From: an uncultured Acidobacteriota bacterium
GTDB lineage: Bacteria > Acidobacteriota > JAQAZP01
NCBI GenBank assembly: GCA_963836075.1
Contig: CAWIIB010000009.1
Coordinates: 3,136,001-3,200,000 of the forward strand
Direction: 5' to 3'
DNA: 64,000 nucleotides
Each line of letters opens with the position of its first letter. The stretch's first letter is position 1. Made by a program: the position numbers and the translations under genes. This document shows, one piece after another, positions 2,131 to 29,386 of the stretch. Under the pieces are notes generated by a model. The model was given only the letters and a program-made list of their open reading frames with translations. It was not told the origin of the DNA and ran no database searches.

Positions 2131-3639
2131 TCAGGGTATTTGCGCGTAGATGATGACGCTGGACTCAGCCCCGTAGCCGGATGCCGGGAATGGCGGCTGG
2201 TTCCAGGGGGCCGGGGTCACATCCTCGACGACCAGTGTGAACATGTTCTTCCCGATCAGTGATCCCAGGGGCGGGATCCTGTAATGCCAGGACGTTGTGG
2301 TGTGGCCGCCGCCGACGATGTTCTGATATCCGGCTTTCCAGTTGTCAATCTTGTACCCCTTGGCCAGCTGCACCTCGATCCGGGCCGCCACCCGCCGCGT
2401 TTGATCGGGAACCCTGTTCAACAGACTCACCGACATGCTGGTCATAAAAGGTACGGTGCCCGAGGTGGGCACGCAGGAATATTCGCTAAACAGGGTTACC
2501 GGCAACCCACGATTGATCAGCACCGCAATATTATCTTCACCGAAACTTGCGGCCGCCAGATCCTGGCTGCCGTCGCCGTCCAGGTCACCAATGGCGACGG
2601 ATTTCCCCTGTCCAGAGGTATCGACCCAGAGAGGCGGCAGGAACGTCCCATTGCCGTTGCCCAAAAGCACCGCAGTGGTGCCAGGATTTGAGTAGCCCTG
2701 GCCGGTGGTGACCAGATCCGGGATGCCGTCTCCATCCAGGTCTCCGATGGCCACCGACTCAGGCCAGCCGCTATATCCGTAACTGATGGCCTCCTGGAGA
2801 GTGCCGTCGCCGTTGCCCAGCAGTACCGATACACTGACGATATTCCCATCAACGGACGTTGCCAGATCCGGAAAGCCGTCTCCATTCAGGTCGCCAATGG
2901 CGACATCATTATATCCATCATCCCCGACTGAGTAGGCGACGGCGGCCTGGAAGGTGGCGTCTCCGTTGCCCAGCAGGACGAATACTCTCTCATCGTCATC
3001 AACCCAGTAAGACCCCACCACAAGGTCCGGGGCGCTGTCCTGATCGAGGTCGCCGATGGCGATTGAAGTACAAGCGACATCAAGCACCTGCCCCGTACCG
3101 AGTTGGAAAGTGCCGTCGCCATTGCCAATCAGCACAAAAACGCTTTTGCTGTCATACGTGCATACGGCAATGTCCGTGTCACCGTCGCCGTCCAGGTCGC
3201 CGGTGACGACGTCGCTTGCGCCACCGACCCAGTAGTTGACGCATGCCTGGAAGGTGCCGTCACCGTTGCCCAGCAGCACCGAAACATCTTCACTGCCGGG
3301 ATTAGCCGTTACCAGGTCTGGAACCCCATCGCCGTTCAGCTCATCAACCGCAATCGCATTCGGAAACTCACCAGTCCCGTAATCCACTGCAGCCTGAAAC
3401 GTGCCGTCACCGTTGCCCAGCAGCACCGAGACATTGTCAATCCAGCCAACACAGGTCGCTGCGAGGTCCGGGTGGCCGTCGCCGTTCAGATCGGCGATGG
3501 CCACGTCAGTGGGACGTTCAACGATTACGTCATACTCCACGGCTGGTTCGAACAGCTGAGCTTCCGCAGTCGCTGAGGGATAGATGCAGAGCGCTACCAG
3601 CAGTGCGATGATGACAAGACTGATGTTTCGGTTTCTCAT
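2131..3639 (-). CDS. Secreted FG-GAP/VCBS repeat protein with C-terminal module B
   Basis: Signal peptide; ~7 DLxGDGxxDL...VSVLLGNGDGTF repeats; tail CVPTSGTVPF...VEDVTPAPWNQPPFPASG. Confidence 0.88.
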   Translation of the reverse strand: MRNRNISLVIIALLVALCIYPSATAEAQLFEPAVEYDVIVERPTDVAIADLNGDGHPDLAATCVGWIDNVSVLLGNGDGTFQAAVDYGTGEFPNAIAVDELNGDGVPDLVTANPGSEDVSVLLGNGDGTFQACVNYWVGGASDVVTGDLDGDGDTDIAVCTYDSKSVFVLIGNGDGTFQLGTGQVLDVACTSIAIGDLDQDSAPDLVVGSYWVDDDERVFVLLGNGDATFQAAVAYSVGDDGYNDVAIGDLNGDGFPDLATSVDGNIVSVSVLLGNGDGTLQEAISYGYSGWPESVAIGDLDGDGIPDLVTTGQGYSNPGTTAVLLGNGNGTFLPPLWVDTSGQGKSVAIGDLDGDGSQDLAAASFGEDNIAVLINRGLPVTLFSEYSCVPTSGTVPFMTSMSVSLLNRVPDQTRRVAARIEVQLAKGYKIDNWKAGYQNIVGGGHTTTSWHYRIPPLGSLIGKNMFTLVVEDVTPAPWNQPPFPASGYGAESSVIIYAQIP

Positions 3640-3705
3640 GATTTATCTCCAAAATGACTATTCGTATGAATACAGCGGCACATCTTTCCTGTTCAGCGGC
3701 AATGC

Positions 3706-5209
3706 TCAGGGCCGTACCGCGATGATGGTGCAGCCATTGATATCCCTGTAGCCGGATACCGGGTATGGCGGCTGGTTCCAGGGGGCCGGGGTCACATCCT
3801 CGGCAACCAGGGTGAATCGGTTGCGCCCGATCAGTGATCCCAGGGCCGGAATGGTCTGATCCCAGGTCCACCTGGTCTCAGCGTCGCCGACGATGTTTGT
3901 ATATCCGGACCTCCAGTTGGCGATGAATTCCCCATTGGCCAGGTTAAAATGAATCCTGGTCGCCACACGGCGGGTTTGATCGGAAACCCTGTTCAACAGG
4001 GTCATTGACATGCGGGTGTCAAAGGGCATGGTGCCGTGCATCGGCACGCAGGAGAAATCGGTGATAAACAGCGTAATGCCAGGCTCCCGCCTGTTGATCA
4101 GCACCGAAATACGAGGGTCCTGGACATTTGTCACCACCGCATCCGGGCCGCCGTCGTTGTTCAGGTCACCCACGGTTGCAGATCCCACCCTTAAACCGGT
4201 TTCATGATAGATTGGCGGCAGAAAAGTCCCGTCACCGTCCCCCAGCATCACCGAAACGGTGTTGCCATAGAAATGATCCACACCATACCGGTTGGCCGTG
4301 ACGAGATCCGGAATGGAGTCCCCATCATGGTCCGCGATGGCCACTGAATACGGATAGCCCACAACGTCGTAGGTCGTGGGTTCCTGGAACGTGCCGTCCC
4401 CGTTGCCCAGGGATACGAGGACGCATTCATTGACGCTGTTGGCGGTGACCAGATCCGGAATGCCGTCGCCATTCAGGTCGTCAGTGGCGATTGAAGCTAT
4501 GCCGTAAACAACCGAGTAGATAATTGCACTCCGGAAGGTGGCATCGCCGTTACCCAGCAAAATCCTGACCTGGCCCAGATATGAACTCACCGCCAGGTCC
4601 GCATGGCCATCACCGTCAAAGTCGTTCCATGACGATTCTGCTGGGGCTGTCCATCGTCCAGTAATTCACCGCGGCCTGGAAGGTGCCGTCCCCGTTGCCC
4701 AGCAGCACTGAGATATTGTTGTGCCCCTCATTGACCACGGCCAGATCCGGGATACTATCACCGTCCAGGTCACCGATGGCCACATCCTTGGGATAGTCAC
4801 CGACTCTGTAGCGGACTTCGGTCTGGAAGGTGCCGTCTCCGTTGCCCAGCCAGACCGAGATCTTGTCACTGAGTTTATTCACTATGATAAGGTCCGGAAT
4901 GCCATCACCGTTCAGATCACCCACCGCAACCTTTTCGGGTTGAAGCCCAGCAGAATACTCCATGGCAGTCTGGAAGGTGCCGTCTCCGTTGCCTAACAGC
5001 ACCGAAATACGGGAGGTGTAAAAACCACTGGCGAAGATAAGATCCTGGGCGCCATCGCCATCCAGATCAGCGATGACCGCGGGCCGGACAATTTCCTCGA
5101 TCTCATAGTCCACTCTTGGTTCGTACAGCTCTGCTTTCGTCGTCGCTGAAGGACAAATACAAAGCGTAACCAGGGCGATGCTGAAAAGACTGATGATTCG
5201 GTAGTTCAT
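3706..5209 (-). CDS. Secreted FG-GAP repeat protein with module B (one frameshift near 4625)
   Basis: ORFs 4616-5209 and 3706-4590 join by removing one base (IVMDDFDGDGHADLAV); tandem paralog of 2131-3639. Confidence 0.82.
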
Positions 5210-5463: not shown

Positions 5464-8185
5464 ATGAGGAAAAGTGTACTTTTCATTGCAGGGTTGTTTG
5501 TGCTTGGCATCATGACGGGGCCGGTGCTCGCCTGGTACCCGTCCACGGAAACGGTGGAGCTGGGGACGGCCACCTGGTGAGGGTATTGCCCAAGGGCTGC
5601 TTCAGGGATTGAAGCGAACAGAGGCTGGTTCGACTCGAATGAATTTGTTTCCCTCGCCTATTTCGCCAGTTCGGGAGATCTGGGAAACGACGACGCTACT
5701 GCACGTATCGGCTACTACTCCGTATCCGCCTACCCCACCCTGGTCTGGCACGGCACCGTCCAGTTTTCAGGGGCCAGCGTGGATGACGCCACCGGTATGC
5801 CCTATCGGGCCAGAATCCTGAGCCAGATGGGCAGACCGTCCGCCTTCAAAATCACCGTCAACTCCGTCAGCCTGACGGCGCCCACCGGCTCCATCGATCT
5901 CGACATCGAGGTGATGGAGGGCGGGGTGGACATCAGCAACATGTTCCTGCGGATCGCCATCACCGAGGACGCTGTCACTTCCGGCGCGGAGGATTTCGAC
6001 GATGTCACCCGCGGCATGGTGGACGACGTGGCCGTCACGGTGAGCAGTCTGGGAGAGATCCAGAACGTGGTTCGCAGCTTCCCCTTCGATGCGGGCTGGG
6101 TTGCGGGAAATACCGAAGTCATCGCCTTTCTCCAGGACGACACCGACAAGAGGATTCATGCCGCCGCGTCCTCCCTGCCCAAGCCGGACTACAGCCTGGG
6201 GTTTTACTACCTCGGTGAACGCCAGCAGATCGGACCGGCGAAAGGGGAACACCACTTCGATAATTTTGCCGTCTTCAACATGGGGGAGATGACCGATACC
6301 TTCACCGTCGACCTGACCGGTCACATCCCCGATGACTGGGTGGTGGAGATCTGTGACGATGTGGACTGCTACGGCTCGACTTACTCCCAGCAGCTGGCTC
6401 CCGGCGAATCGATGGAGCTGCACATCAAGGTCGAGCCTGGATCGAGCGGGTACGCGGCGATCTCGGTGGATATGAGCCAGGCCAGCCTGATGCACAAGTT
6501 CCCCCGCAACATCGACTACATCTACAACACGGATGACCTGGATGTGCTGCTGGTGGACGATGACGGCGGGGAGACATACGAGGACTATTTCATCGATGCG
6601 CTGGAGCAGAGCGGATACACTTTCGGCTTACTGAAGCGCCTGGAGGGCGGTTTGCCGGCCGGCGCCATCGACAACTTCCCGATGGTCGTCTGGAACGTCG
6701 GCTGGTCCTTCCCGACCCTCGATGCGCAGGACCGGGAGTCGTTGGGCGCCTTCCTCGACGCCGGCGGCTCGCTGTTCATCAGCGGCCAGGACATCGGTTA
6801 CGATCTGAACGACCAGGGTGCGGAAGCCTACCAGTGGTACCAGGACTATCTCCACGCGATCTACGTCTCGGACGACACCAACGATTACACGCTCGACGGC
6901 GTGGCCGGCGACCCGGTCTCCGGCGGAATCGACCTCGTCATCCAGGGCGGGGATGGTGCGGACAACCAGGAATATCCCAGCGATATCGATCCGGCGGATG
7001 GATCCACGGCGGTCATCTGGAGTTACGATGCGGACCGCAATGGCGCGGTGCGTGCCGACACCGGAACACACCGGGTGATCTACCTCGCCTTCGGTTTCGA
7101 GGGGATCGACAACGCCGACGACCGTCGTGCCGTCATGCAGAGCAGTATCACCTGGCTCGATCCCGAGAGCGAATCTGCGTCCAAACGTCTGCTGACCGGT
7201 CCCGGGCCCGGGTTCGACAACCCGCCGCAGGTCAGGGTGTTTCCCCCGGAGCAGGATGCGGCGGCACTCTACGATTTCCCCGCGTACGGAGCCTCCAGTT
7301 ACGGGGTAAACGTGGCCTGCGGCAATGTCACCGGCAGCGGGCTGGATACGATCATCACCGGCGCCGGCCCGGGGGACATCTACGGCCCCCATGTCCGGGG
7401 CTTCTCCGTCGACGGCACGCCGCTGTCCGCGCTCAATTTCCTGGCCTACGGCACGAACAAGTATGGCGTCAACGTGGCGGCGGGTGATATCGACGCCGAC
7501 GGGTACGACGAGATCATCACCGGTGCCGGTCCGGGCGCCGTTTTCGGCCCCCACGTCCGCGGCTGGGACCATGACGGCGGGTCGGGAGTCACCTCGATCG
7601 GAGGGGTGAACTACTTCGCCTACGGTACGCCGAAGTGGGGGGTCAATGTGGCGTGCGGTGACATCGACGGTGACGGCTACGACGAGATCGTCACCGGTGC
7701 CGGACCCGGCGCGGTGTACGGCCCGCACGTCCGCGGCTGGAACGTGGACGGCGGCACCGCCGCCTCGATCCCCGCGGTGAGCTTCTTCGGCTACGGCACG
7801 CTGAAGTACGGCGTGAACGTCACCTGCGGCGACCTGGACGGCGACGGCATCGACGAGATCGTCACCGGCGCGGGGCCGGGAGCGGTTTTCGGCCCCCACG
7901 TTCGCGGCTGGAACTATGACGGCGGCACGGTGGTGTCGATGACCGGGATCAACTTCTTCGCCTGGGACCCGGACGATGCGCGTTTCGGGGCCAGGGTTTT
8001 CGCCGGCGCCGATCTGAACAACGACGGCACGGGATGAGCTGGTTGTGGGGTGCGGACCCGATCCCGATCTGGGCACACCGGTCAAGGTCTATCTCTATGA
8101 CGGAGCAGTTTTGACCGATTGGTTCTCCCTGACCGCCTACACGGACCTGACCCACGGGACCAGTGTCTCGGCTGGAGGGTTCTAG
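5464..8185 (+). CDS. Secreted Omp28/thioredoxin-like selenoprotein (UGYC) with C-terminal module A; in-frame TGA 5578-5580, frameshift near 8028
   Basis: ATG 5464 with signal peptide MRKSVLFIAGLFVLGIMTGPVLA, then VELGTATW-TGA-GYCP in frame with ORF 5779-8037; later YPT cis-Pro loop; removing one base near 8028 gives DGRDELVVG...SAGGF-TAG like paralogs. Confidence 0.82.
5599..5615 (+). promoter_or_regulatory. Putative bacterial SECIS
   Basis: GCTTCA-GGGAT-TGAAGC, loop 24 nt after TGA 5578. Confidence 0.7.
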
Positions 8186-8363: not shown

Positions 8364-10472
8364 TCAGAACCTGCCCGCCGCCACGTTGGTTCCATGGGTC
8401 ATCTCGGGGAATGCCTCCAGTGAGATCCACTGGGTCACCGCTATCCCATCGTAGGTAAAGACCTTCACCTCGGTATCGGCCGTGGGATCAGGACCACGGC
8501 CGGCCACAAGCTCATCTCGGCCATTACCGTTCAGGTCGGCTCCGGCGAAGACATTGACCCCGTAGCTCTGTGATCCGGTCAGCCAGGCGAAGAAGCTGAA
8601 ACCGGGCAGGGGGGTGACGGAGGTGTCGTCAAAGTCCCAGCCGCGGACGTGGGGGCCGAAGACCGCCCCCGGACCGGCACCGGTGACGATCTCGTCGATG
8701 CCGTCGCCGTCCACGTCGCCACAGCTGACGTTGACGCCATACTTCAGGGTGCCGTAGGCAAAGAAGCTGACACCGGTGATCGACGAGACTGTCGGGTTGC
8801 CGTCGACGTTCCAGCCGCGGACGTGGGGGCCGTACACTGCTCCGGGGCCAGCTCCCGAGACGATCTCGTCAAAGCCGTCACCATCGATATCACCGGCTGA
8901 AACATTCACGCCCCATTTGGGCGTGCCGTAGGCAAAGTAGCTGACCCCCGGGTATGGCGCAACTCCCGAAGTGCCGTTGAAGGTCCATGCACGGACGTGG
9001 GGACCGAATACCGCACCCGGGCCGGCACCGGTGATGATCTCGTCGGTTCCGTCGCCGTCCAGGTCGCCGGCGGTCACGTTCGCACCGTATTTGTTCGTGC
9101 CGTAGGCGAGGAAACTGAGGCCGGGTATGGTGCTGCCATCCTTGTTGAAACCCCTCACATGGGGGCCATAGATGTCGCCAGGTCCGGGCCCGGTGAGGAT
9201 CTCGTCGAGCCGGTCGCCGTCAATGTCACCACAACTTACGTTGACCCCGTAATGATCCGGCCCATACGCCTGGAACTGGTATTCATGCGCTGCATGGTGC
9301 TCTGTGGGGAACACCCGCACGTGGGGAGGATTATCGTATGCCGGACCGGTGCAGGTTACGAGAAAATATACTGGAAGGGGATAATGGGACCCCATATCCA
9401 CAACCCCGGCATCCTCAACGAAATCGGTGCGCGTTGTTCCCTCCACCATGTCGCTCAGCGGATCACCCGTATCGATGCACGGACTGTTTTCGGCCTGACC
9501 TGCAGCGAGATGGCTCAGGCAGTACTCCCCCAAAGGACCGCTGACGAACAGCGGGTCGATATCGATGTTGCCTTCTCCGGACCAGCCGTTCTGGATGTCG
9601 GAAAAGGTGACAACCCCCGTTCCGCCGGAGGCAAACCTCAACTGGTCCCAGGCGTTGCCCCAGACTATCGAGTTTTCAATCAATACCGTCGAGTTGGAGC
9701 TGTAGATCCCGCCAGTGTTGGTGTTCGTGTTGTTCGACGCGACGGTGCAGTTGGTCATGGCCAGTGTGGAGGTAAAATAACAGGCGATTCCACCGCCGCT
9801 CCTGTCGGAGAAATTCCCCGCGATCACATTGTTGAGGACGGTCAGTGAACTGCTGAAATCACAGAAGATGCCGCCACCGTTATTCTCCGCCGTGTTTCCC
9901 GAAATGGTGTTATTGCGTATGGTCGCTTCAGACTCCCTGCAGGAGATACCTCCACCCCAGTTTGCCGAATTGGCCGTAATCGTGTTCCCGTCGATCACTG
10001 CCGAGGAGTTGAAACAGCAGATTCCACCGCCATAAAAGTCACAACTATTTCCGGTAATGAGATTGTCTTTGATGGTGGGGGAGGCCTGGTTACAGAAGAT
10101 GGCGCCCCCGTGAGTCGAGGGTCCGGCTTCACCGTTCCGAATCGTGAATCCCTGGACCACCGATTTTTCATCTTCGCCACTGTGGAAGTAGAACCCTCTG
10201 TGTTCGGCAGCCACACTTCCCTGGCAATCGACGATGCAGTTGGCCGCACCATTTTCAGACCGGACCTTGATCGCCTTTCCGTGGAAGTCGATGTCCCGGT
10301 TGCCTTCACCGCTGTAAGTGCCATCAGCCACCAGCACCGTGTCGCCGTCCAGGGCGGCGTCGATGCCGGCCTGGATGGTGGGCTGGTCAGCCGGGACATG
10401 GATGGTGGCGGCAGGGAGGGGAAGGGACAGAAAGAGGCCCAGGGCGATGAACAGCGTTGTGGGGAATCTCAT
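8364..10472 (-). CDS. Secreted right-handed beta-helix protein with hinge and module A
   Basis: Signal peptide, ATIHVPADQPTIQAGID, GGGI-x-C...N repeats, SPCIDTG..TTRTD..DMGSHY, GPGPG-HVRG repeats, ends AGRF. Confidence 0.88.
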   Translation of the reverse strand: MRFPTTLFIALGLFLSLPLPAATIHVPADQPTIQAGIDAALDGDTVLVADGTYSGEGNRDIDFHGKAIKVRSENGAANCIVDCQGSVAAEHRGFYFHSGEDEKSVVQGFTIRNGEAGPSTHGGAIFCNQASPTIKDNLITGNSCDFYGGGICCFNSSAVIDGNTITANSANWGGGISCRESEATIRNNTISGNTAENNGGGIFCDFSSSLTVLNNVIAGNFSDRSGGGIACYFTSTLAMTNCTVASNNTNTNTGGIYSSNSTVLIENSIVWGNAWDQLRFASGGTGVVTFSDIQNGWSGEGNIDIDPLFVSGPLGEYCLSHLAAGQAENSPCIDTGDPLSDMVEGTTRTDFVEDAGVVDMGSHYPLPVYFLVTCTGPAYDNPPHVRVFPTEHHAAHEYQFQAYGPDHYGVNVSCGDIDGDRLDEILTGPGPGDIYGPHVRGFNKDGSTIPGLSFLAYGTNKYGANVTAGDLDGDGTDEIITGAGPGAVFGPHVRAWTFNGTSGVAPYPGVSYFAYGTPKWGVNVSAGDIDGDGFDEIVSGAGPGAVYGPHVRGWNVDGNPTVSSITGVSFFAYGTLKYGVNVSCGDVDGDGIDEIVTGAGPGAVFGPHVRGWDFDDTSVTPLPGFSFFAWLTGSQSYGVNVFAGADLNGNGRDELVAGRGPDPTADTEVKVFTYDGIAVTQWISLEAFPEMTHGTNVAAGRF

Positions 10473-10487: not shown

Positions 10488-13358
10488 TCAGAAGCGGCCC
10501 GCCGTTACGTTCGCCCCGTAGGTCCACCCGTCGGGGAAGGCCTGCAGCGAGAACCAGAGCGTGGTCTGGGACCCGTCATAGGTGTAGACCTTGAGCAGTG
10601 TGTTGACTGCCGGGTCCGGGCCGGCGCCCACCACGATCTCGTCCCGGCCGTTGCCGTTCAGGTCGGCTCCGGACGAGATGCTGCTGCCGTAGCGGACCTC
10701 ATCCGGCGGCCAGGCAAAGAAGTTCACCCCGGGCATGTCGGTGATCGTCAACCCGTCATGGTTCCACCCGCGAATGTGGGTCCCGAAGGCCGGGGACGGT
10801 CCCGGCGCGGTGACGATCTCGTCCACGCCGTCGCCATCAATGTCGCCGCAGCTGACCCGCACACCGTAGCGCGGGGTGTTGTAAGCGAAATAGCTGATCC
10901 CGGGGATTGACACGGCCGTTCCACCATCCACGTTCCAGCCCCGCACATGGGCGCCGTAGATCGGTCCGGGCCCCGCGCCGGTTATGATCTCGTCGAAGCC
11001 ATCGCCGTCGATGTCGCCGGCCGCCACGTTGACGCCCCACTGCGGCGCGCCGTAGGCGAAGAAATTGACGCCGGCCACCGGTGACACGGCACCGGTGACA
11101 TCGTAGTTCCACCCCCGCACATGCGGGCCGAAGACAGCGCCCGGCCCGGCGCCGGTGATGACCTCGTCGAACCCGTCACCGTCGATGTCGCCGCCGGCCA
11201 CGTTAACGCCGAACTTGTTGGAGCTGTAGGCCAGAAAGCTCAAGCCGGGGAGGGGGGTGCCGTCCACGGCGAAGCCCCGCACGTGGGGGCCGAACACGTC
11301 GCCCGGTCCGGCACCGGTGAGGATCTCGTCCCTGAGATCTCCGTCCACATTGGCGCAGCTGAGGTTTACCCCGTGGTGCGGGGGATCATAGGCCTGGAAG
11401 GCATAGGTCCGGATCGCCCCTTCCTCCGGGGGAAAGACCCGGACCCGGGGCGGGTTGGCCGGTCCCGGCCCCAGTCCGGCAATGATAAATGGCAGGGTGG
11501 CGATCTCGCCGAGGGGGTAGTGATAGCCCATGTCCGCAACGCCTTCGTCAACACCTTCGTCGGTGCGGGTGGTCCCGTCCACGATCCCCGCCGAGGGGTC
11601 TCCGGCATCGACGCAGGGGCTGGTTGCCGGCTGACCGGCCACGGTGTGGCTGAGGTAGAAGTCCCCCGCAAGACCGCTGGCGAAGAGCGGATCGGCGTCG
11701 ATCATGCCGTCCCACCAGTTGAGAATGCATCCGGAGTCAACGGCCACGCCGGCCTGTCCGCCCGCAACATTGCTGTACTTGATGGTCAGCCGGCTGATGG
11801 CACCGTCATCATCGCTGACAAAGATCTCATTGCCATCTGGTGCGCTGTTGCCCCAGAAGATGGAGTTGACCACACGAAAATGGGCCTGGGTGAAGGTGTA
11901 CAGACCGCCGCCCTTTTGGGTGGCAACGTTCCCGGCAACGGTGGTATTCCAGAACCAGGGATCCGCGTCTCTGCCGGCGATACCGCCTCCTCTTCCGGCG
12001 CTGTTGCCGATCACCAGGTTATTGATATATGAATTGGTGGAGTCGGGTCCGGCACAGATGCCGCCCCCCCGGTCGGCCGAGTTGCCGATGATCGTATTGT
12101 TTGAGATGGCAGTGGAGTGGCAGACATAGGTGTAGATGCCGCCCCCGTCACGGGTTGCCACATTGTCCGAGATCAGGTTTCCGGTGATCTGCCCGTTGTC
12201 GTCCCGGACATAAATGCCCCCGCCGTTATAGCCCTGATTTCCGGTGATGGTGTTGTTCGAGATGACTGTTGCATATCCACTGCACGCGATTCCGCCGCCG
12301 GCACCCTCATTGGAGTTCCCGGTGATGATGTTGTTGGTGATCGTGTTTCGACTGTTGGCATCGATGCCGGGACCTTCCGTATTGTCACTGATCGTGTTCC
12401 CGGTGATCAGGAGGCTGCCGCCGCAATAGAGCCCGCAACCGATATTGTTCTGGATCAGGTTGTCGGCGATCTGTCCGGCCGGCGCCGAGCAATAGAGCCC
12501 ACCGCGTTTGCTGCCGGTCGTGTACAGCGATGCATTCTCGATGAAACTGCAATCGGTGAAATCCATCGATTGTGATGAATAGCAGTATGCGCCGGCGCCC
12601 CAGACCCCCGCCGTGTTAGATTGGAAGAGGCAATCCCGGACCACCACCACCGCACAGTCTGCACAATACAGCCCGCCCCCGTGGTTGTCGGCGTTGTTTC
12701 CGGTGAAGGTGGTTCCGGTGATGGTCGGCGAGGAACTGGCAAAAAATGCTATACCTCCCCCGTATCCCTCATAGGGATAGTGCTCGGTGTTGTCGTTGTT
12801 GGAGATGGTGCAGTTGGTGATCGTCGGCGAGGAATCGAGGCCGTAGATGCCGCCACCGTTGTAGTCGGAGAGGCAGCCGTCGACAACGCAGCCGGTAATC
12901 TCGGCGGTCGAGTTCTCGAGATAGATGCCGCCGCCCTGGTCCGTGCCCCGGCAATTGCTTACGACCATGTTGCGGATAGTGGGGGAGGACTCGAAGCAGT
13001 GGATGGCCCCACCCTGACTGTGAAGCCCGTTGGCGATGGTGAAACCCTGCAGCACTGCTGTCTGGTCTTCGCTCGACTGGAAGATAAACGCCCGCCCGTC
13101 GTTCTGACAGTCGAGGATGCAGGCCGCCGGCCCATTCTCCGATTCTACGGTGATTGACTTGCCGAGGAAGTCGAGGTCCTTGTTCCAGAACCCGGTCCAT
13201 GTGCCGTCGGCCACCCGCACCGTGTCACCGTTGACAGCGGCCTCCATGGCGTGACGAATGGTGGGCTGGTCGGCAGGGACATGAATCACTGCGGCCGCTG
13301 CGCCAAAGGAGCAGCCGAGCAATGCGGTGAGCACAATGGCCATCTGCTGCTTCATCAT
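10488..13358 (-). CDS. Secreted beta-helix protein with hinge and module A
   Basis: Start reassigned to ATG 13358 (GAGGAG upstream, MMKQQMAIVLTALL signal); same architecture, longer beta-helix, ends AGRF. Confidence 0.88.
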   Translation of the reverse strand: MMKQQMAIVLTALLGCSFGAAAAVIHVPADQPTIRHAMEAAVNGDTVRVADGTWTGFWNKDLDFLGKSITVESENGPAACILDCQNDGRAFIFQSSEDQTAVLQGFTIANGLHSQGGAIHCFESSPTIRNMVVSNCRGTDQGGGIYLENSTAEITGCVVDGCLSDYNGGGIYGLDSSPTITNCTISNNDNTEHYPYEGYGGGIAFFASSSPTITGTTFTGNNADNHGGGLYCADCAVVVVRDCLFQSNTAGVWGAGAYCYSSQSMDFTDCSFIENASLYTTGSKRGGLYCSAPAGQIADNLIQNNIGCGLYCGGSLLITGNTISDNTEGPGIDANSRNTITNNIITGNSNEGAGGGIACSGYATVISNNTITGNQGYNGGGIYVRDDNGQITGNLISDNVATRDGGGIYTYVCHSTAISNNTIIGNSADRGGGICAGPDSTNSYINNLVIGNSAGRGGGIAGRDADPWFWNTTVAGNVATQKGGGLYTFTQAHFRVVNSIFWGNSAPDGNEIFVSDDDGAISRLTIKYSNVAGGQAGVAVDSGCILNWWDGMIDADPLFASGLAGDFYLSHTVAGQPATSPCVDAGDPSAGIVDGTTRTDEGVDEGVADMGYHYPLGEIATLPFIIAGLGPGPANPPRVRVFPPEEGAIRTYAFQAYDPPHHGVNLSCANVDGDLRDEILTGAGPGDVFGPHVRGFAVDGTPLPGLSFLAYSSNKFGVNVAGGDIDGDGFDEVITGAGPGAVFGPHVRGWNYDVTGAVSPVAGVNFFAYGAPQWGVNVAAGDIDGDGFDEIITGAGPGPIYGAHVRGWNVDGGTAVSIPGISYFAYNTPRYGVRVSCGDIDGDGVDEIVTAPGPSPAFGTHIRGWNHDGLTITDMPGVNFFAWPPDEVRYGSSISSGADLNGNGRDEIVVGAGPDPAVNTLLKVYTYDGSQTTLWFSLQAFPDGWTYGANVTAGRF

Positions 13359-18565: not shown

Positions 18566-18586
18566 ATCTGTCGTCGGGATCATCCC

Positions 18587-18624
18587 TGCCCGGAACGCGG
18601 TTCGACCCCTGTTCCGGGCATTTT
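18587..18624 (+). terminator. Rho-independent terminator after prxU
   Basis: TGCCCGGAAC...GTTCCGGGCA followed by TTTT. Confidence 0.7.
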
Positions 18625-18728
18625 CATAACGGTTGTCTCCCTTTAATGGTTGTGAGATGATCGGCCATCTGAAAATGGTTTGCTGCACGCACTTTTATCA
18701 AGATGCACACGTCTGGAGGAAGTATCAA

Positions 18729-19283
18729 ATGATCACGGTTCTGCGCACTCTGCTCGTCTGCCTCATCCTCGTTTCACTGCCCGTGCTGGGAATCGCCTGC
18801 GGTGGTTCGGACTCCGCCGAAACTGCCGCCGGAGAGACCGCGGATGTCGCCACGCCGGGCAGCCCGGACGCCACAGAGGAGAAAAAAGCTGAATCCTCGG
18901 ATGATTCATTGAGTTCGCCGGAAGCCGCCATGATGGTGGCAAAATACAAAGAAATGGCGGCCAGTGAAGGCATCTACTTTGGCGAGGTGCCCGAGGGCTT
19001 CCCGCTCGACTTCATCCCCCTGCACCCTGACGGCAAGATCGACAAGTCTTCCACGGGCGGTGGTGATTTCACCCTGCTGCAGAACGTGCCTGCGGAAAAG
19101 GACACCGTCTTCGCCTGGTTCAAAGATTTTTATAGCGACATGGGCTGGACCGTTGGCGATCCCTTCACCATGGGCAATCGGACCATGACCGGCATCGATG
19201 GGAACAGTGGAGAGGTCTCCATGACCATGATTACCCAGGATGACGGATCGACATTCGTTGCCCTGGTGCTGAGCCCGAGGTAG
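18729..19283 (+). CDS. Hypothetical lipoprotein
   Basis: GGAGGA RBS; hydrophobic leader ending LGIAC, acidic linker, VPEGFPLDFIPL motif. Confidence 0.7.
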   Translation: MITVLRTLLVCLILVSLPVLGIACGGSDSAETAAGETADVATPGSPDATEEKKAESSDDSLSSPEAAMMVAKYKEMAASEGIYFGEVPEGFPLDFIPLHPDGKIDKSSTGGGDFTLLQNVPAEKDTVFAWFKDFYSDMGWTVGDPFTMGNRTMTGIDGNSGEVSMTMITQDDGSTFVALVLSPR

Positions 19284-19299
19284 CGATCCCGCGGAGATC

Positions 19300-20367: not shown

Positions 20368-20760
20368 GTCCCCTGACGGAGGGTATGGCGGTTGGTTGTA
20401 TGGTGCCGCGGTCACGTCCTCCACCACCAGGGTGAATATATTGTGTCCGGTCAGTGAGCCGAGGGCCGGGATGGTCCGGGCCCAGGAATGATCAGTCGCC
20501 TCCGGTCACCAGGTTGGCGTTGGCGGCCCGCCAGTTGCCGTAGGTCAGGCCTCCGGCCAGCTGGACATTGATCCGGGCGGCCATGGTGCGGGTGGGGCCG
20601 GCGTAGCGGTTGGCCATTCCGGCGGTGATCACAGTCTGGAAGGGCAGGGCGCCAGATTCCGGGACGCAGGTCAGGGATGCTGCCGCCGACGACCAGCCGT
20701 AATGGAATCCCATGTCGGCCTGGCCGGCTGTCGTCCACCCTATCGGTGCGGGTGGTCAGG
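20326..20760 (-). repeat. Near-identical copy of module B DNA at about 22287-22720
   Basis: Long shared tracts, e.g. cccggtcacctggcagctgtcggtggctgagtcccctgacgg and cagctggac..ttgatccgggcggccatggtgcgggtg. Confidence 0.85.
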
Positions 20761-22157
20761 TCGGCAAGGCTGACCGGACCGTAAGGGGTCTCGTAACCGA
20801 TGTTTGCCGCGGCGTCGTTTCCCGCATCGACACAGGGGCTCTGTCCGGGCTGCCCGGCGGCGGTCTGGCTCAGGTAAAAGTCGCCGGCGGAACCGGACAC
20901 GAAAAGCGGGTCACTCTCCAGCATCCCGTCGCCCCAGATTACCTCGCATTGGGTGCAGACGTCGATGGCCGCCAGGCCGCCCTCCAGGGTGCTGTGGCCG
21001 ATCTGCAGGATGGGCGGGTTGTAGTGCGACACGTTGTATTCCATCCTGATCTCGTATCCACCGGGAGCGCTGTTGCCCCAGATAACGTTGTCGGCGAAGG
21101 TGATCACCGAGTCGGAGAAGTAGCTGTCGAGAATCAGGATGCCGCCCGTGTTCTGGCCCGATATGTTCCCGGTGATGGTGTTGCAGATCACCGTTGACTC
21201 GGAGTGTTGGAACTGCAAGCCGCCGCAGTCACCGGCGGCGATGTTGCCGGCCACCAGGTTGTTGATCATCAGCCCGCCGTCACCGATCATATCCGAACCA
21301 AAAGCCATCCCCCCCACGTCACCGTCGGTCTGGTTGTCGAGTACCACGTTGTTGGCGGCCAGGACCTCACGCCCGGTGGCCGTCATCCCGCCGACCCAGG
21401 TGACCGAACTGTTGTTGGCCACGAGGTTGTCGATGACGATGGCGTTGCCGCTGGAGACCGCCATTCCGCCCACCGTGCCCGCCGACTGGTTGCCGGTGAT
21501 CGTATTCCCGGTGACCACCGCCTGGTCGCCGCGGCACTGGACACCGCCGGCGGCCACGATGGCGCTGTTTCCGGAGACCAGATTGTCGATGATTTCCACC
21601 ATCGATGAGGGGGCGCCATAGATGCCGCCGCCATATTCGGCCTGGTTCTTCTCGATGCGGTTCTCGATGATCAGCGGGTTCACCGTGCTGAAACAGGCGA
21701 TTCCCCCGCCGTAATCAGATGTATTGCCGGTGATCAGGTTGCCCCGGATGGTCGGGTCCGCGCCGCCGGAGACCATGATCCCTCCGCCATACTGGCCGAA
21801 CTCGTCGAGGTAGCCGTTCCTGATGGTGAAGCCCTCGAGCAGCGCATCGCGGGTCTCGTTTTCGTGGAAGAAGAAACCGCGGTGCTGTTCGGACGGACTC
21901 CCCTGGCAGTCGACGATGCAGTCATCCGGTCCGTGCTCCGAGCGGACAATAATCGCCTTACCGCGGAATTCGATGTCCCGGTTGCCTGCACCGGTGTAGA
22001 TACCGTCAGCCACCAATACCGTGTCGCCGTTCACGGCAGTGTCGATCCCGGCCTGGATCGTGGTTTGGTCCGCTGGAACATGGATCACGGCAGCGGTGGA
22101 ATGTGCAGCTGATGCGAGCAGGAAGACGGCGCTGGCCAGCAGGATGATGTTTTTCAT
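20326..22157 (-). CDS. Secreted beta-helix protein with hinge and module B (frameshifts near 20730 and 20480-20510)
   Basis: ATG 22157 after GGAGG; DNA tail closely matches the 22287 gene and ends CQVTGLTP-TGA at 20326. Confidence 0.75.
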
Positions 22158-22286: not shown

Positions 22287-24555
22287 TCAGGGAGCGATCC
22301 CGGTCACCTGGCAGCTGTCGGTGGCTGAGTCCCCTGACGGGGGGTAGGGCGGCTGGTTGTATGGCGCCGCGGTCACGTCCTCCACCATCAGGGTGAAAAT
22401 ATTGAGTCCGGTCAGTGAGCCGAGGGCCGGGATGGTCTGGGCCCAGGAACTGATCAGGTCGGCCTCCGGTGCCAGGTTGGCATGGCCGGCCCGCCAGTTG
22501 CCGTAGCTCTGTCCTCCGGCCAGCTGGACGTTGATCCGGGCGGCCATGGTGCGGGTGAAGCCGGCGTAGCGGTTGGCCATTCCAGCGGTGATCAGAGTCT
22601 GGAAGGGCAGGGTGCCCGATTCCGGCAGGCAGGTCAGGGATGCTGCAGCCGACGTCCAGCCGTAGTGGAACCCCATGTCGGCCTGGCCCGTATCGTTCAC
22701 CCGGTCGGTGCGGGTGGTGCAGCGGCCGATACGGGGGACGCTTGCTGCCACCGGTGGACAGGTCTCTTCCGCCAGGTTGCTGCCGGCATCGAGACAGGGG
22801 CTGTCGGCCAGCTGTCCGGCTGCCCGTTGGCTGAGATAGAACGGACCGTCCGGGCCGCTGAGGAAAAGCGGGTTGGCGTCGATGTTGCCGTTGGTCAGCG
22901 TGCCGGCCTCGATGTTGTTGAACCGGGTGTACCAGTCCCTGCCCTGCCAGACCTGGCTGTGGAGGTACGGCTGGTCGGGGGCGTTGTTGCGGATGATGTT
23001 GTTGGTCAGCGCCGGCTTGGAGAGGAAGCAGAGGATGGCTGCCGTCTCCTCGTAGGGGTACTCCTGGTTGTGCACCGGGTTGCCGGAGATGGTGTTGCTG
23101 ATCAGCCGGGGGTAGGAGTAGGCGCAGTAGATGGCCGAGGCGTTGACCAGCACATGGTTGTCGGTGAAAAGACTGTTGTAGATCACCGGTGAAGCGTCGT
23201 AGAGATACACGGCGCCGCCGTATTCGGCGAGGTTGCTGCTGAAGACGCAGCCGGCAATGGTCAGCCTGGAAAACCCGATGGCCGAGACCGCCCCGCCGCC
23301 GAACTCGTAGTCTTCCAGTGTGGCGTCCACCGCCTTGCCGTATTCGATGCGGCAGTATTCCAGCCGGCTGCCCGGGTTGGTGGCCGCCGTGCCGTGGAAG
23401 CGGATACCGTTCCAGCAGCCGGTGAGCGTGCGGTCCAGGTTGAAATCCGCCGGCCGGTCGGTGGTGAAGGTGATCATCGACCGGGGTGAGCCCACGGCAA
23501 TGAGTGTCCCCTGGACCGCGAGGCGGTGGAATCCTTCGAACTCCACCCGGGTGCCGGGGGTGACAGTCAGGGTCACCCCGTCATCCACGGTGACGTCGCC
23601 CACCACCCGCACCAGGTCGGCGTTCCAGGTGGTGTTCACCGCTACCGGGCCGGAGACGACCATCTCGTCACGCCGCGGGATGGTCAGGGGTAGCGGTGGT
23701 TCCTTGCTGTCCGGCCTGGCGGCACGATTGTCCCGGGTAAAGGTCTGGCAGCCGTACCCGGCGGCCGGCGATCCGGGGGCCAGGCTGTAGTCGCCGTTCG
23801 CCGGGTCGGCCAGCTGGGGGTCGGTGCCCACCACGTTGTTCCAGGGGGCCGAACCGGCCCCGTCCCATGGCTGGGGGGCGAATCAGCCGTAGTCGCAGAG
23901 CAGGCCGTAGTGCCGCAGGGCGTTGCTGTTGACCGCCGGGTCGGAGAACCAGGTCCAGTTGTGGTGCACATCCGGGCCGTTGATCCACCCCGGCAGCTCA
24001 CTCATGGCAACGGCCAGGCCGGTGGGCAGCCAGTCGTTGGCCGAGCCGTTGAGGTAGTGCACATCGGGACCCGTGTCCAGCGGATCGACCACGATGTTGT
24101 GGTCCAGTTCGATGTTCCGTGCGCTGGAGAGCAGCCGCACCGCGTAGTCGTGGGGCTGGTAGAAAGTGACGTTGCGCACGAAGCCGGCCGGCCAGTGGTC
24201 GGTGGAGCTGTCCTGATAGCCGCGGTAGCGGATATTGCCGCCCAGGATCACACAGTCGTCGATGTCCAGCCGGTTGCTGCAGTAGGAGATGCAGACCTCC
24301 GCCCCCTGCAGGTCGAGGATCGCCCCGTTACCCACGATCCGCACGTCCTCGCCGCCCGGCTAGAAACTGGGCGGTGATGCGGTTGAAGGTCCCGCCGATG
24401 AGCAGCCCGCCGGTATAGGTCACCCCGGTTTCCAGCACGATGTAGCGGTCGTAGCCCATGGCCGGAGACGCGGCGTCATGCATCTCTTTCAGCGTGGTGG
24501 CGAAGAGCGGCTGGCACAGGGCCAGGGCGAGGATGAAGGGGAGAATTGTGCGCAT
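22287..24555 (-). CDS. Secreted two-part beta-helix protein with hinge and module B; candidate selenoprotein (in-frame TGA 23883-23885), frameshift near 24360
   Basis: Signal peptide MRTILPFILALALCQPLFA; ORFs 23883-24344 and 22287-23834 are in one frame separated only by TGA (LCDYG-TGA-FAPQPWDG); downstream part has no leader of its own. Confidence 0.7.
23845..23861 (-). promoter_or_regulatory. Putative bacterial SECIS
   Basis: Minus strand GGGGCC-GGTTC-GGCCCC, loop 27 nt after TGA. Confidence 0.6.
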
Positions 24556-24632
24556 CGAACATCCAGTGCGGTTTAAGGACAGAACACACCCTCAATATAG
24601 GGTGTTTCGGTCGGGATGGCAAACAGGGGAGC

Positions 24633-27123
24633 TCAGGGGGAAATGGCCGCCACCGCGGCATTGCTCCCGTGGGTCCAGTCCCCGGGATAGGCCTCGAGGG
24701 AGAAGAGCAGGGAGAGATTCCCTTCCTGGTAGCTGTAGACCTTGACCGTCGATCCCATCCGGGGATCGGGCCCGGGGCAGACCACGAACTCGTCCCGGCC
24801 GTCACCGTTCAGGTCGGTGCAGGGGCCGACCCGGGCTCCAAAGCGTGCTTCAGCCGGGTCCCAGGCGAAGAAACCGAACCCGTCCAGTTCGCCCACCGCG
24901 AGACCGTCGAAGTTCCAGCCCCGGATGTGCGCGCCGAATGCCGGGGATGGTCCGGGTGCGGTGACCATCTCGTCGATCCCGTCACCGTCCACATCGCAGC
25001 AGGTGACATTGAGCCCGTATCTTGGTGTGTTGTAGGCGAAGAAACTCACCGCCGGGATGGCCGCGGCGGTTGCGCCGTCCACGTTCCAGCCCCGGACGTG
25101 CGCTCCGTAGATCGGGCCCGGACCGGCGCCGGTGACGATCTCGTCAAAGCCGTCGCCGTCGATATCGCCGGCGCTGACCTTAACCCCCCATTTGGGTGTG
25201 CCGTAGGCGAAGTAGCTGACCCCGGGCACTGCGGAAACAGTGGTATCTGGTGTAGGAGAAAGCACGGACGTGCGGGCCGAACACCGCCCCGGGGCCCGCG
25301 CCGGTGATGATCTCGTCCTTGCCGTCGCCATCGAGGTCGCCGGCCGCCACGTTGACCCCCCACTTGTTGGTGCCGTAGGCCAGGAAGTTGAGGCCGTCCA
25401 CGGGCTCGCCGTCGATGGTAAAGCCGCGCACATGGGGGCCGTAGATGGCTCCGGGGCCGGCGCCGGTGAGCAGTTCGCTCCCCGGGTACCGTCCACGTCG
25501 CCGGTGGCCACGTTGACCCCGAAATTCGACGCGCCGTAGGCTGCGAACTCGAGGGTGTGTGCGGCATCCTGCACTGCAGGGAAGACACGGACCAGGGGCG
25601 GGTTGTCCTCGGCCGGGCCCGGCCCGGTGATAATCATCGCGCTGCCCAGACCCGGGTAGTGAAACCCCATGTCCACCATGCCGACGATCGGTCACCCGGT
25701 CGGTGCGGGTGGACAACGTGGAGAGGGAGACCAGCCCGTCGGGGGTGTCGAAGCTGATGTCGGCGGCAGGTTCGCTTCCCGTGTCCACGCAGGGGCTCTC
25801 CTCGGCTTGCCCGGCTGCAAGCTGGCTCAGGTAGTGGTCGCCGTCGGGCCCGGTTGTAAAGAGAGGGTCGGCGTCGATCATGCCGTCGCCCCAGGTCAGA
25901 TTGCACTGGGGGCAGACATCAACGGCGTCGATTCCGCCCATGATATCGGAGTGACCGATCTCCATGTAGGGCGGGCCCCAGGTATCGCTGACTTCCAGCT
26001 TGATCTTGTACCCCTCTGGGGCAGATGTTGTCCCAGACGATGTTGTTGACGAACTCCAGGGGCCGGTCGTCATAGTTGCTGCCGTGGACCATCACCCCGC
26101 CCACTTCCTGGCCTTCGTTCCCGATGAAGGTGTTGTTCGTCACCGTGGCCCAGGCCAGGCTGAACCAGGCCCCACCGACAGGCGCCCGCGGCCCGGTTGC
26201 GGGCGACCACGTTGTTGATGAACACGCCGTAGTCCACCGGGTAGGTGGAAAAGGAGACCCCGCCGAGGAAGCCCTGGTCTCGTTGTCCACGATCACGTTG
26301 TCGGCCACCAGACTGGTTCTCGCCGCCCACCGCCATGCCGCCTACCCACCGTCTACGGACTGGTTGCCGGCGATCAGGTTGCCGATGATCGAGGCCCCCG
26401 GTTCGGCCAGCACATGAAGCCCGCCGACCGCCGTCCACGGCATCGTTGTTGGTGATCGTGTTGTCGGTGATGAACGGGGCGGCTGAACTCGGATCCGGAT
26501 ACCCCCGCCGGAGTATGAGGCGCTGTTCCCGCTGATCACGTTGTCCATGATGACTGGAACACGTCGGCGCCACCGTAGATCCCGCCGCCCGCGAAGCGCC
26601 TGATTGCCTACGATCCGGTTCCCTGTGATCAGCGGGCCTGCATTGCCGTAAAGGGAGATGCCGCCGCCGCTGCTTCACCGAAGTTACCGGTGATGATGTT
26701 GTTGCGGATAGTTGGGCTGGCGTGGTTTTGAACTGGCGATGCCACCGCCGTAGTTGGCGTCCGGGCTGTTGTAGCCGTTTCTGATGGTGAAGCCTTCCAA
26801 TACGGATCCCCGGCTCTCGCGCTCGTGGAAGAAGAAGCCCGCGGTGGGGATCCGCCTCGCTGCCCTGGCAGTCGATGATGCAGCTTTCCGGGCCGTTCTC
26901 CGAGCGGACGGTGATTGCCTTGCCGAGGAAGTCGATGTCCCGGTTGCCCTCACCGGTGTAGATCCCGTCGGCCACCAGCACCACGTCCTCGAGTCTGGCG
27001 GCATCGATGCCGGCCTGGATGGTGGGCTGGTCGCCGGGGACATGGATGATGTCGGCGTGCAAAACAACAGATAAAACGAGAAGGATAAGAAATGTGATCG
27101 GAACAAGTGCCTTGTCGCATCAT
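24633..27123 (-). pseudogene. Secreted beta-helix protein with hinge and module A, multiply frameshifted (pseudogene or sequencing error)
   Basis: Fragments in alternating frames: ADIIHVPGDQPTIQAGID, beta-helix repeats, SPCVDTG..STRTD, DMGFHY, GPGPG-HVRG repeats. Confidence 0.72.
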
Positions 27124-27131
27124 CGTCTCTC

Positions 27132-29386
27132 CTATCTCATCCACCCGGCGGTGGCGTTGCTGCCGTGACTCCAGCCGGCGGGGAAGGTGTCAAAACTGAG
27201 AATCTGTTCTATGTCATCATCGACATAACGGTAGATTCCTGCCGGTGAGCCACATGTCCGGGTCGGGGCCGGCGGTGACCAGGAACTCGTCGCGGCCGTC
27301 GAAGTCGAGGTCGGCGGCTTTGCCCACCCGTGCTCCGTAGCGCGCTTCCGCCGGGTCCCAGGCAAAGAAACTGAAATTGGGCATGGCGGTGGTCTCCTGG
27401 CCGTCCCAGCGCCAGCCGCGGATGTGGGCGCCGAACTGGCTCGAGGGACCGGGAGAGGTGATCATCTCGTCCACCCCGTCGCCGTTGACGTCGGCGCAGC
27501 AGACGTTGACCCCGTATTTCCAGGTGCCGTAGGCCATGAAGCCCATGTTGTGGATCACTTCGGCCGTGCCCCCGTCCACATTCCAGCCCCGGACGTGGGG
27601 GCCGAATACAGCACCCGGGCCGGGACCGGTGACGATCTCGTCGAAACCGTCGCCGTCGATGTCGCCGGCGGTGAGGTTGACGCCCCACTTCAGCGTGGAG
27701 TAGGCGAAGAAGTTGACGCCGGAAAGCGAGGAGACGCCGCTGCCGGGTGTGTAGGAGAAGGCCCGGACGTGGGGGCCGAACACATCGCCCGGTCCGGCGC
27801 CGGTGATGATCTCGTCTCTGCCATTGCCGTCCAGGTCACCCAGTGCCACGTTGACACCGAATTTGAGTGTGCCGTAGGCCATGAAGTTGAGGTCCTGGAT
27901 CGGGGTGCTGTCCGATTCGAAGCCCCGCACGTGGGGGCCGTAGATGTCGCCCGGTCCGGGGCCGGTGATGATCTCCAGGGCCAGGTCGCCGTCCGGGTCG
28001 CCGCAGGCCACGTTTACTCCGTAACTCGATGCGCCGTACGCCGCAAACTCCCGGATGGGCAGTGGGATGTCTCCCTGGGACATGACCCGGACCAGCGGCG
28101 GATTCAGTTCCGAGGGCCCGGGGCCGGCCACGATGCCCAGGGCCGGGTAGTGGTAGCCGATATCAATGGTGCCGGTATCCGGGTAACCGTCGGTGCGGGT
28201 GACGCCCAGCGGGACCTCGGTGGCCGGGTCGCCGGCATCGACACAGGGGCTGTCCACGGGCTGGCCGGCAGCCTCCTGGCCCAGGTAATACCCGCCCTGC
28301 GGCCCATTGACAAAGAGCGGGTCGGCGCTGATCATGCCCGGCCCCCAGGTGTAGGACGCATCGTCCTCCACCTGGATCGCCGATTCGCCGTTGATCAGGT
28401 TGGAGTAACGGATGTCGAGAGTCTGGTTGTTGTCGATAAGGATGTGTCCGGTGATGATGCAGTTGGTGACCCGGAGATGGTCGCTGTACCGAGGATTCGA
28501 TGTTGGTGATGATATTGCCGTCAAGAATCAGGTCGCCGCTGCCCCGCATCGACATGAGGTCGCTGCAGCTCAGCGTGTCATTGATGAAAATGTTGTTGCG
28601 CACGGTGCCGGAGCAGGTCCAGAGCCCGTCACCGTAGTGGGCACTGTTACCGATGAAGACGTTCCCCTCGACCAGCCTTCCATACTTCACTCCGCCGCCG
28701 TAGCCCTCACCCTGCCCACCCCCTGCGCGGTTGCTCTCGATGAGATTACCGATGATCATGCAGTCGCCGCGCGCAAGAATGCCCCCACCATCGGAATCCG
28801 AATATCGTTGAGTGGTTGAGTTGTCGTAGATCCAGTTGTCTGCGATCAGTGGCGATCCACCATAGGTGTCAATGCCCCCACCCGATCCCCAGGCTCCGTT
28901 CCTGGAGATGGTGTTATTGAAGATTTTCGGTGATCCCCCGAAATTTTTTATTCCGGCTCCGGACACGAGAACATCTACCCAATATTCCCCCCAGCCGTTG
29001 AGGGAAATGATATTGCCGGTAATGGTTGGAGAGGAGTCCTCACAGTAGATCCCTCCGCCCACGGCGTTGGTGATAGTGAATCCCCCGATGAATGCACTGG
29101 GGCCTTCACCATTGGCAAAGGTCACCGCCCTTTCCTCATGGAAACTCCCGTCTATCATTGTCAGTACAGGTCCGGCTGAACTGCGGACGACGATGTTCTT
29201 CCCCAGAAAACTGATGGGGTCATAATAGGTGCCGGGGCCCACCATTACCGTGTCACCGTCCACCGCCGCGTCGATGCCGGCCTGGATCGTGGGCTGGTCG
29301 CCGGGAACGTGGATGGTGGCGGCGGGGAGCTGAACCGCCGGAATGAGGAGGATGAGTATCCAGACGATGATCAGCAGCCGGGCCAT
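27132..29386 (-). CDS. Secreted beta-helix protein with hinge and module A (frameshifts near 28495 and 27250)
   Basis: MARLLIIVWILILL leader, ATIHVPGDQPTIQAG; continues in ORFs 27217-28524 and 27132-27365, ends TAGWMR. Confidence 0.78.

Follow-up and report, generated by a model that had tools for sequence, protein, structure and literature searches.

The 64,000-nucleotide stretch of an uncultured Acidobacteriota genome analysed here (contig CAWIIB010000009.1, positions 3,136,001 to 3,200,000; hereafter the window) carries an array of genes whose exported products end in one of two modules, A and B. Both modules are predicted, from models, to fold on their own. Judged by sequence, B is an uncatalogued domain that belongs to no Pfam or NCBIfam family, and A is a genus-specific subfamily of the known FG-GAP/integrin-type propeller, not a new family. 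The reading that we favour, with confidence poised evenly between acceptance and doubt, is that A and B are interchangeable, uncleaved, non-covalent anchors which keep enzymes and adhesin-like proteins, once exported, at the cell surface or within the matrix. The surface location of these proteins is something we infer.

Two terminal modules in the window and the genome

The initial annotation of the window had described 11 genes, five ending in B and six in A, and an open reading frame (ORF) listing with a six-frame motif scan recovered, at the same places, a B motif in five of them and clustered A repeats in six. Against profiles from this genome the score is 145-200 bits for a single B domain and up to 590 bits for A, far above chance. 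The signal peptide claimed for every member was borne out, with signal-peptide-like N-termini in 11/11 genes once the frames are followed. The modules are longer than the approximately 115 (B) and 300 (A) residues first given, measuring about 122-125 and 335 residues. Within the window the passengers are less varied than had been claimed: eight of the 11 are beta-helix paralogs, two are FG-GAP propellers and one is Omp28-related, so that, taken by itself, the window offers weak support for a sorting tag. The argument from passenger diversity holds genome-wide only.

This genome (G000) was compared with two others of the same genus (G001 and G002), the genomes being 91-100% complete. Profiles built from G000, with thresholds of at least 25 bits for B and at least 60 bits for A, identify 219 B and 139 A loci in it, well beyond the one locus in which the modules had been noticed. 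Intact carriers make up 10.6% of the G000 sequence, and the genes are clustered, 63% lying within 5 kb of another. The 298 passengers form 145 clusters, 110 of them singletons, and here the proposed variety of passengers is upheld. A and B are mixed in 15 clusters, the closest paralog pairs with opposite tails sharing 77, 77, 76 and 70% identity. No ORF in G000 carries both modules.

The tails are nearly always terminal. Among 185 intact B domains in G000, 176 end at the stop codon and 182 within eight residues of it; two of the other three are seemingly frameshifted near the end, and the last belongs to the one protein that truly carries B internally. For A, 118 of 125 carriers end within 15 residues. 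A protein library holds 510 clusters that match B. In the best 150 of these B lies no more than ten residues from the end in 146, occurs as two copies in eight and is internal in three, with module A absent from all 150 representatives. In metagenome loci B is terminal in 40/41 ORFs. The modules are therefore C-terminal in nearly all copies but not in every one: some B domains are internal, in tandem or free of a passenger, which is more in keeping with a module for binding than with a signal that is cleaved off.

A heuristic detected signal peptides in G000 in 119/185 B and 79/125 A proteins as against 533/1858 other long ORFs, counts that are lowered because frameshifts remove many N-termini. 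In loci of two other assemblies, scored with a slightly laxer heuristic that had no control of its own, 72/83 B and 12/13 A ORFs with a closed 5′ end have one, and five more B ORFs gain one across an in-frame TGA. As the initial annotation had noted, there is no terminal transmembrane (TM) anchor: a 19-residue window with hydropathy of at least 1.6 found no helix in the last 45 residues of any of 185 B or 125 A proteins. An LPxTG-like motif occurs in two of the 185 B proteins, with no TM helix.

The model of B is an immunoglobulin (Ig)/FnIII-like sandwich (pLDDT 97.3) composed of strands only, except for one short turn. Between copies the mean identity is 46%, the structural residues being invariant, and conservation is lowest at third codon positions (0.60/0.63/0.48). 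Within the domain a proline-rich loop, DVTPAPYNQPPY, ahead of the last strand is conserved best. Cysteines in the first and last strands tend to occur together (both in 123, neither in 28 and a single one in 31 of 182 copies, although paralogs are not independent), which suggests that the two form a disulfide. No conserved motif precedes the domain, the top residue reaching 12-21% in the nine preceding columns. Against the named Ig-like families of Pfam (CARDB, FnIII and NEW3) the best E values are 0.046-0.16, each in one of 43 members and below cut-off; NCBIfam gave no match, nor did PDB sequences at E 1, and a profile comparison with another Ig-like tail (P0227) found none. In structural comparison Vibrio RbmA ranks first (Z 12.3, root-mean-square deviation 2.4, 104 aligned residues, 14% identity), and no sorting domain is among the top rows of the fold searches, which leaves such a match possible lower down. 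ESM Atlas gave unnamed or CARDB-type clusters (0.91-0.92), below the level of reliable recognition and a lead only.

Six divergent B-like tails of G000 lack the DVTPAPYNQPPY loop and have extra cysteine (C1:997674, C1:1708557, C1:1909419, C9:1048599, C9:2390488 and C9:2392206). They form one clade (SH-aLRT 98) in a quick tree of 45 of the 181 tail copies, nine divergent rows and nine rows of a lipoprotein form of B discussed below.

Module A is modelled as a six-bladed propeller of 24 strands, closed by the last strand (pLDDT 91.5, pTM 0.92). Its loops keep DxDxDG in the alignment and include a distinctive GAGPGAVFGPHVRGW loop. On PF01839, for which the cut-off is 22.1, isolated A modules reach 50-84 bits, and A passes the cut-off of PF13517 as well; a profile match to integrin alpha (E 1.4e-7) was obtained, and the ESM Atlas look-alikes are planctomycete FG-GAP clusters. 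Such a match to characterised Pfam domains is, at the level of the family, among the outcomes that the initial annotation had named as refuting its proposal; B has no such match.

Both modules were found in three of 401 genomes of the phylum, all of one genus, in agreement with the suggestion of lineage-specific tags. The survey scored the best 10 or 5 candidates per genome with a cut-off for A of E 1e-30, at which A had no match in the other 398. A pattern scan of 185,579 species genomes led to 101 confirmed stretches, the best 80 of them from two assemblies, one labelled Acidobacteriota; the modules recur in two other assemblies and in metagenome contigs. Sequencing runs that contain at least a quarter of the sampled words bear the label of a soil or sediment metagenome, and among the runs listed no RNA run carries module words. 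Module A has no match to plasmids at 1e-10. No description of A or B was found in the literature searched, which excluded subscription journals.

What do the tails carry? A Pfam scan of 60 B proteins (57 from loci and three representatives) left 16 with no match. The rest include C25, S8, M14, M28, M23 and C1 peptidases, a Porphyromonas-type deiminase, arylsulfotransferase, phosphoesterase, multiheme cytochromes and several propellers. A choice-of-anchor J domain is present in one A protein. For a C25 peptidase passenger, the best 120 homologs, of which those with names are mostly planctomycetes, end in B in seven cases, in A in one and in a dockerin-like pattern in 52; the last were counted by regular expression and many of the other 60, some of them truncated, look similar by eye. 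The best 120 homologs of the beta-helix passenger of window gene 10488 comprise 12 with A, six with B, eight with Dockerin_1 and five with Por_Secre_tail. Since homologous passengers elsewhere end in dockerin-like tails or in type IX secretion system (T9SS) tails, A and B occupy the slot that such tails hold in other organisms. Two of the homolog tails, P0354 and P0324, pass the cut-off of the T9SS model TIGR04183.

One secreted propeller protein of G000 (C9:3010893-3013568, locus L250) ends in a degenerate T9SS-type tail. It was the one ORF retrieved, at E 4e-6, by a profile from six T9SS-type homolog tails that had no independent positive control, and it scores 19.8 bits on TIGR04183 where the cut-off is 23. 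The gene was possibly acquired and its tail not replaced.

Comparison with known terminal domains

Dockerin, whether type I (PF00404) or GC-type (NF041540), taken with cohesin (PF00963), is similar to A and B in being a folded C-terminal module on many unrelated enzymes with signal peptides. Dockerin tails are found on close homologs of A/B passengers and on a few proteins of this genome. In Cloacimonadota, according to PMC8542988, C25 and S8 peptidases have dockerin tails and a scaffoldin is present. However, neither A nor B matches PF00404 and both models are all-beta, with no dockerin sequence or fold.

Like the model of B, the T9SS type A C-terminal domain (CTD; TIGR04183, PF18962) forms an Ig-like sandwich, with which cargo exported by Sec terminates (PMC4804311). 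The cargo repertoires overlap and homologous passengers elsewhere bear the T9SS CTD, but none of 43 B members is placed with it by Pfam, and TIGR04183 matches none of six B and three A domains. B is also longer (approximately 122 residues), and has the predicted disulfide, the proline-rich loop, and tandem and internal copies.

The tripartite signals (LPXTG, PEP-CTERM, MYXO-CTERM and GlyGly-CTERM) are likewise terminal, numerous in a genome and attached to unrelated proteins with signal peptides; A and B share criteria 1, 2 and 6 of those listed for such signals in bioRxiv 10.1101/2023.06.07.544157. They differ in having no TM helix or basic tail and in being folded domains of 122 and 335 residues, the propeller far exceeding in size the signals treated there. 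Lineage-specific terminal domains on exported proteins are of a known kind (bioRxiv 10.1101/2023.06.07.544157 and PMC8542988).

Module A is like the FG-GAP/integrin-alpha propellers, PF01839 and PF13517 both being above cut-off. The integrin alpha propeller has seven blades, and the blades of Vibrio Bap1 and RbmC are of FG-GAP type. The six modelled blades of A compare with those seven and with eight in Bap1/RbmC, and A stands apart from other FG-GAP proteins by its GAGPGAVFGPHVRGW loop and as a fixed terminal unit on approximately 139 proteins. It shares with the Bap1/RbmC propeller a Velcro-type closure, and in Vibrio cholerae that propeller binds exopolysaccharide directly (both PMC10102183), as does the FnIII-2 domain of RbmA (PMC5605196); bioRxiv 10.64898/2026.08.03.742583 is a further source on exopolysaccharide binding by the Velcro-closed propeller and FnIII domain. 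Unlike B, RbmA is a free-standing matrix protein rather than a tail. We regard these Vibrio proteins as a precedent by fold, not by homology.

Envelope components and the role of the tails

The organism is diderm, having Omp85 and secretin genes. One of its proteins (G000:C9:1846372-1846875; L178:2373-2876) has a lipoprotein-type signal and a short linker that runs straight into B, with no passenger. This lipoprotein B is found also in loci L182, L217, L218 and L219 and has 14 database relatives of 43-88% identity. In the alignment of the query with 13 of these 14, the lipobox cysteine and the loop are kept in 13/14 rows, the fourteenth being devoid of its N-terminus. Nine lipoprotein rows form one clade in the quick tree (SH-aLRT 90). 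The gene lies directly upstream of the same MscS-type gene with a cNMP-binding domain in 5/5 loci. A complex prediction for tail B with lipoprotein B (score 0.00, mark 0.32) bears neither for nor against binding. Five tandem short ORFs in two of the loci (L219:10090-11950 and L218:3424-3960) share an N-terminal ‘SEKSFETSAL.C’ motif and have Gly/Ser-rich, Cys-ended cores; by sequence they look like repeated peptide precursors.

A third, dockerin-type tail accompanies A and B in G000, where nine dockerin-like ORFs, eight with the domain terminal, point to a small cohesin-dockerin set. A cohesin lipoprotein (C1:1016987-1017823, L179) and a beta-helix protein ending in Dockerin_1 (C1:1131816-1133135, L180) are each just above the Pfam cut-off, and Pfam cohesin gives two to four matches per genome. 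No multi-cohesin scaffoldin was recognised by eye among ORFs of at least 1150 residues, and neither inspection of long ORFs nor a crude list of barrel-like C-termini supplied a candidate receptor.

Cohesin occurs too at the C-terminus of a GspD-like secretin (G000:C1:2169994-2172519; L156:9995-12520, minus strand), behind a TPR region and a long acidic linker. The domain is 92-96% identical across the genus, and no description of a cohesin-tipped secretin was found in the literature searched. A link between this domain and A/B was considered and rejected, the domain being phylum-wide: similar ones occur in 91/201 genomes of the phylum, 88 of them outside the genus, mostly in frames of 700-1000 residues. 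The secretin belongs to a type II-like locus (C1:2.169-2.179 Mb) with an ATPase, a platform protein, a PilM/GspL-like protein, a weak GspM and two prepilin-like genes, and separate from the PilMNOPQ operon.

The initial annotation had looked to a co-occurring dedicated translocon or peptidase; none was identified. SprA was found in none of the three genomes and the TIGR04183 genome search was empty, the control of each being silent too. The PorV family gave only a FadL-like hit below cut-off. Exosortase, sought with PF09721 alone, was absent from all three genomes, its control being positive in one. Wza-type exporters number three to six in each genome, with six in G000. Two Omp85-family frames of approximately 2180 residues (C9:2267510-2274076 and C9:1011951-1018484), kept in all three genomes, we take to be probable TamB-TamA fusions. 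A 273-residue exported ORF (C1:1733037-1733855; L159:9038-9856), seen in G000 only, has a weak secretin-domain match (E 2.6e-6).

How might the tails work? Under the anchoring proposal cargo would be exported by Sec and fold in the periplasm, the most confident of three steps. It might then cross the outer membrane through the type II-like secretin system, a less confident step, and, least confidently, each tail would attach to a ligand that recurs on the surface, for which capsule or exopolysaccharide is the likeliest candidate and a surface protein the alternative. Passenger genes that enter the genome would acquire the local tail by recombination at the domain boundary. Anchoring is favoured because dockerin, which is known to anchor non-covalently, has the slot as well, in this genome too, because B persists in tandem, internally and without cargo, and because no motif precedes B and A is a multivalent-looking propeller of 335 residues.

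Several observations weigh against this view. No ligand, receptor or reader has been identified for A or B. The RbmA match to B ranks level with those of Ig folds unrelated to it (Z 11.6 and 11.3) and the best structural rows of A are generic six-bladed propellers (Kelch, Z 21.9), so neither fold match shows function. Genes for A and B are not enriched within 20 kb of Wza genes (A, five against 5.4 expected; B, four against 6.4). Lipoprotein B may be dispensable: it is present in G001 but was not found in G002, where the MscS-type neighbour is missing too, and it is conserved less than that neighbour (59-92% against 79-97%). The type II-like parts fall below the GspD, GspE and GspF cut-offs and GspK was not found, which leaves export by this route, as judged from sequence, unproven. 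Finally, the near-absolute terminal position and the lack of A+B hybrids suit a targeting signal equally well or better.

Such a signal is a serious competitor, though on balance unlikely. A and B would target proteins for export and be recognised in the periplasm by a machine of the outer membrane, in the manner of the T9SS CTD and with or without later cleavage, the candidate machine being the cohesin-tipped secretin or an unrecognised translocon. The strict position of the tails accords with this, as do a cargo resembling the T9SS repertoire (C25, Porphyromonas-type deiminase, M14, S8 and Omp28-like proteins), the Ig-like sandwich common to B and the T9SS CTD (PMC4804311), the genus-conserved cohesin domain of the secretin taken with the replacement of dockerin-like tails by B, and the observation, in PMC10102183, that a Bap1 construct devoid of its propeller is not secreted. 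However, a single machine would need to recognise both of two unrelated folds, the distribution of the cohesin-like domain does not follow that of A/B, the internal, tandem and passenger-free copies of B are hard to place, and SprA (control silent), a PorV above cut-off and exosortase were not found. Under a further, doubtful proposal the genus would have swapped type IX/dockerin tagging for a two-channel display of its own in which folded cargo passes the cohesin-tipped secretin to envelope receptors, lipoprotein B being the membrane-side part of the B channel.

It is distinctly unlikely that A and B have no sorting or self-anchoring role and are accessory modules facing outwards, similar to carbohydrate-binding modules, which bind sediment particles, polymers or other cells and concentrate released enzymes on their substrate. 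Ig-like and FG-GAP propeller folds are often used in adhesion, A is kin to the propellers of integrin alpha with the DxDxDG loops kept, and the CARDB-type look-alikes of B are in weak agreement; but there is no substrate common to a cargo of proteases, a deiminase, cytochromes, phosphoesterases, selenoproteins and non-catalytic repeats, a distribution limited to one genus suggests that the ligand is the producer's own, and the two tails never combine. We give little credence to retention of the cargo in the periplasm, where its tails would dock on a polymer of the envelope or on a lipoprotein that faces inwards. Such an orientation is conceivable for lipoprotein B and the cohesin lipoprotein, and no complete secretion machine is proven, yet homologous cargo in other phyla bears T9SS tails, and long beta-helix and propeller passengers of adhesin-like type suggest surface exposure. 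A reading of the modules as artefacts of assembly, or as coding repeats that are selfish or neutral, is scarcely credible and already largely refuted: hundreds of copies in arrays and many assembly indels might be read so, but the modules recur in two other assemblies and in metagenome contigs, B copies have diverged to a mean identity of 46% around invariant structural residues while varying most at third codon positions, and the B cysteine pair co-varies within a confidently modelled fold (pLDDT 97).

Organisation of the array

Three further members lie upstream of the window, making 14 in all and the largest array in the genome. The purA gene (adenylosuccinate synthetase, by sequence inspection; window 481-1800) borders it, and unrelated ORFs at 17936-20367 (approximately 17.9-20.3 kb) split it. 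Gene 5464 is on the opposite strand from the rest, that is the plus strand, the other ten window genes being on the minus strand. Five of the 11 window genes are single open frames (2131, 8364, 10488, 13372 and 15542) and six are interrupted. Every product begins with a signal-peptide-like segment, and the remaining parts are as follows.

The two FG-GAP propeller proteins end in B. That at 2131-3639 (B at approximately 2134-2508) is intact with 502 residues; that at 3706-5209 (B 3709-4083) is interrupted near 4600-4630 in the assembly, its counterpart in G002 sitting in an open frame of 446 residues. The Omp28-related putative selenoprotein at 5464-8185 ends in A (approximately 7160-8185) and has a frameshift near 8030. 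Four intact beta-helix proteins follow: 8364-10472 (702 residues; A 8367-9365, the copy modelled as a six-bladed propeller), 10488-13358 (a long beta-helix; A 10491-11501), 13372-15384 (670 residues; B 13375-13746, the copy modelled as an Ig-like sandwich) and 15542-17605 (687 residues; A 15545-16564). Beyond the split, 20326-22157 has a beta-helix-type passenger and a B (20329-20713) spread over two frames in the assembly, and 22287-24555 a TGA-bearing passenger, a beta-helix and B (22290-22661), with a frameshift near 24370. The last two have beta-helix-type passengers and A: 24633-27125 (A approximately 24636-25682) has several frameshifts and an approximate start, and 27132-29386 (A approximately 27132-28150) is frameshifted, its end being that of the initial annotation.

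Most breaks in the six interrupted genes are probably indel errors of the assembly, since contigs assembled from short reads of near-identical strains show indels of one or two bases relative to the window at 25483, 25685, 26277, 26311, 26347, 26430, 26841, 27114 and 27252 (each resting on one contig at depth below 5) and same-genus homologs are unbroken. Two in-frame TGA codons are another matter. One, at 5578-5580 in gene 5464, is read as UxxC, and the product matches the Omp28-related selenoprotein model NF045500 at E 1.9e-6, below cut-off; the other is at 23883-23885 in gene 22287. Both look real and likely to encode selenocysteine because the second recurs in the same-genus locus L103 and the genome has a tRNA-Sec. 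In-frame TGA codons in A/B cargo are also conserved between assemblies elsewhere (L114, L131, L116 and L137), in the context UxxC in Omp28-like genes and as CxxxU and CxxU in others; such cargo proteins are probable exported selenoproteins.

The general pattern, a lineage-specific terminal domain, is already known. Here, with carriers that take up 10.6% of the genome, the A and B tails give order to a large part of what a deep, uncultured sediment lineage exports. One set of passenger enzymes moves between phyla and changes its terminal tag, be it T9SS CTD, dockerin-like, A or B. B merits a family model, being small, easy to express and available in a natural lipid-anchored version, and the natural A/B paralog pairs offer built-in controls. 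How diderms that lack a T9SS hold large sets of enzymes on their surface is now a testable question.

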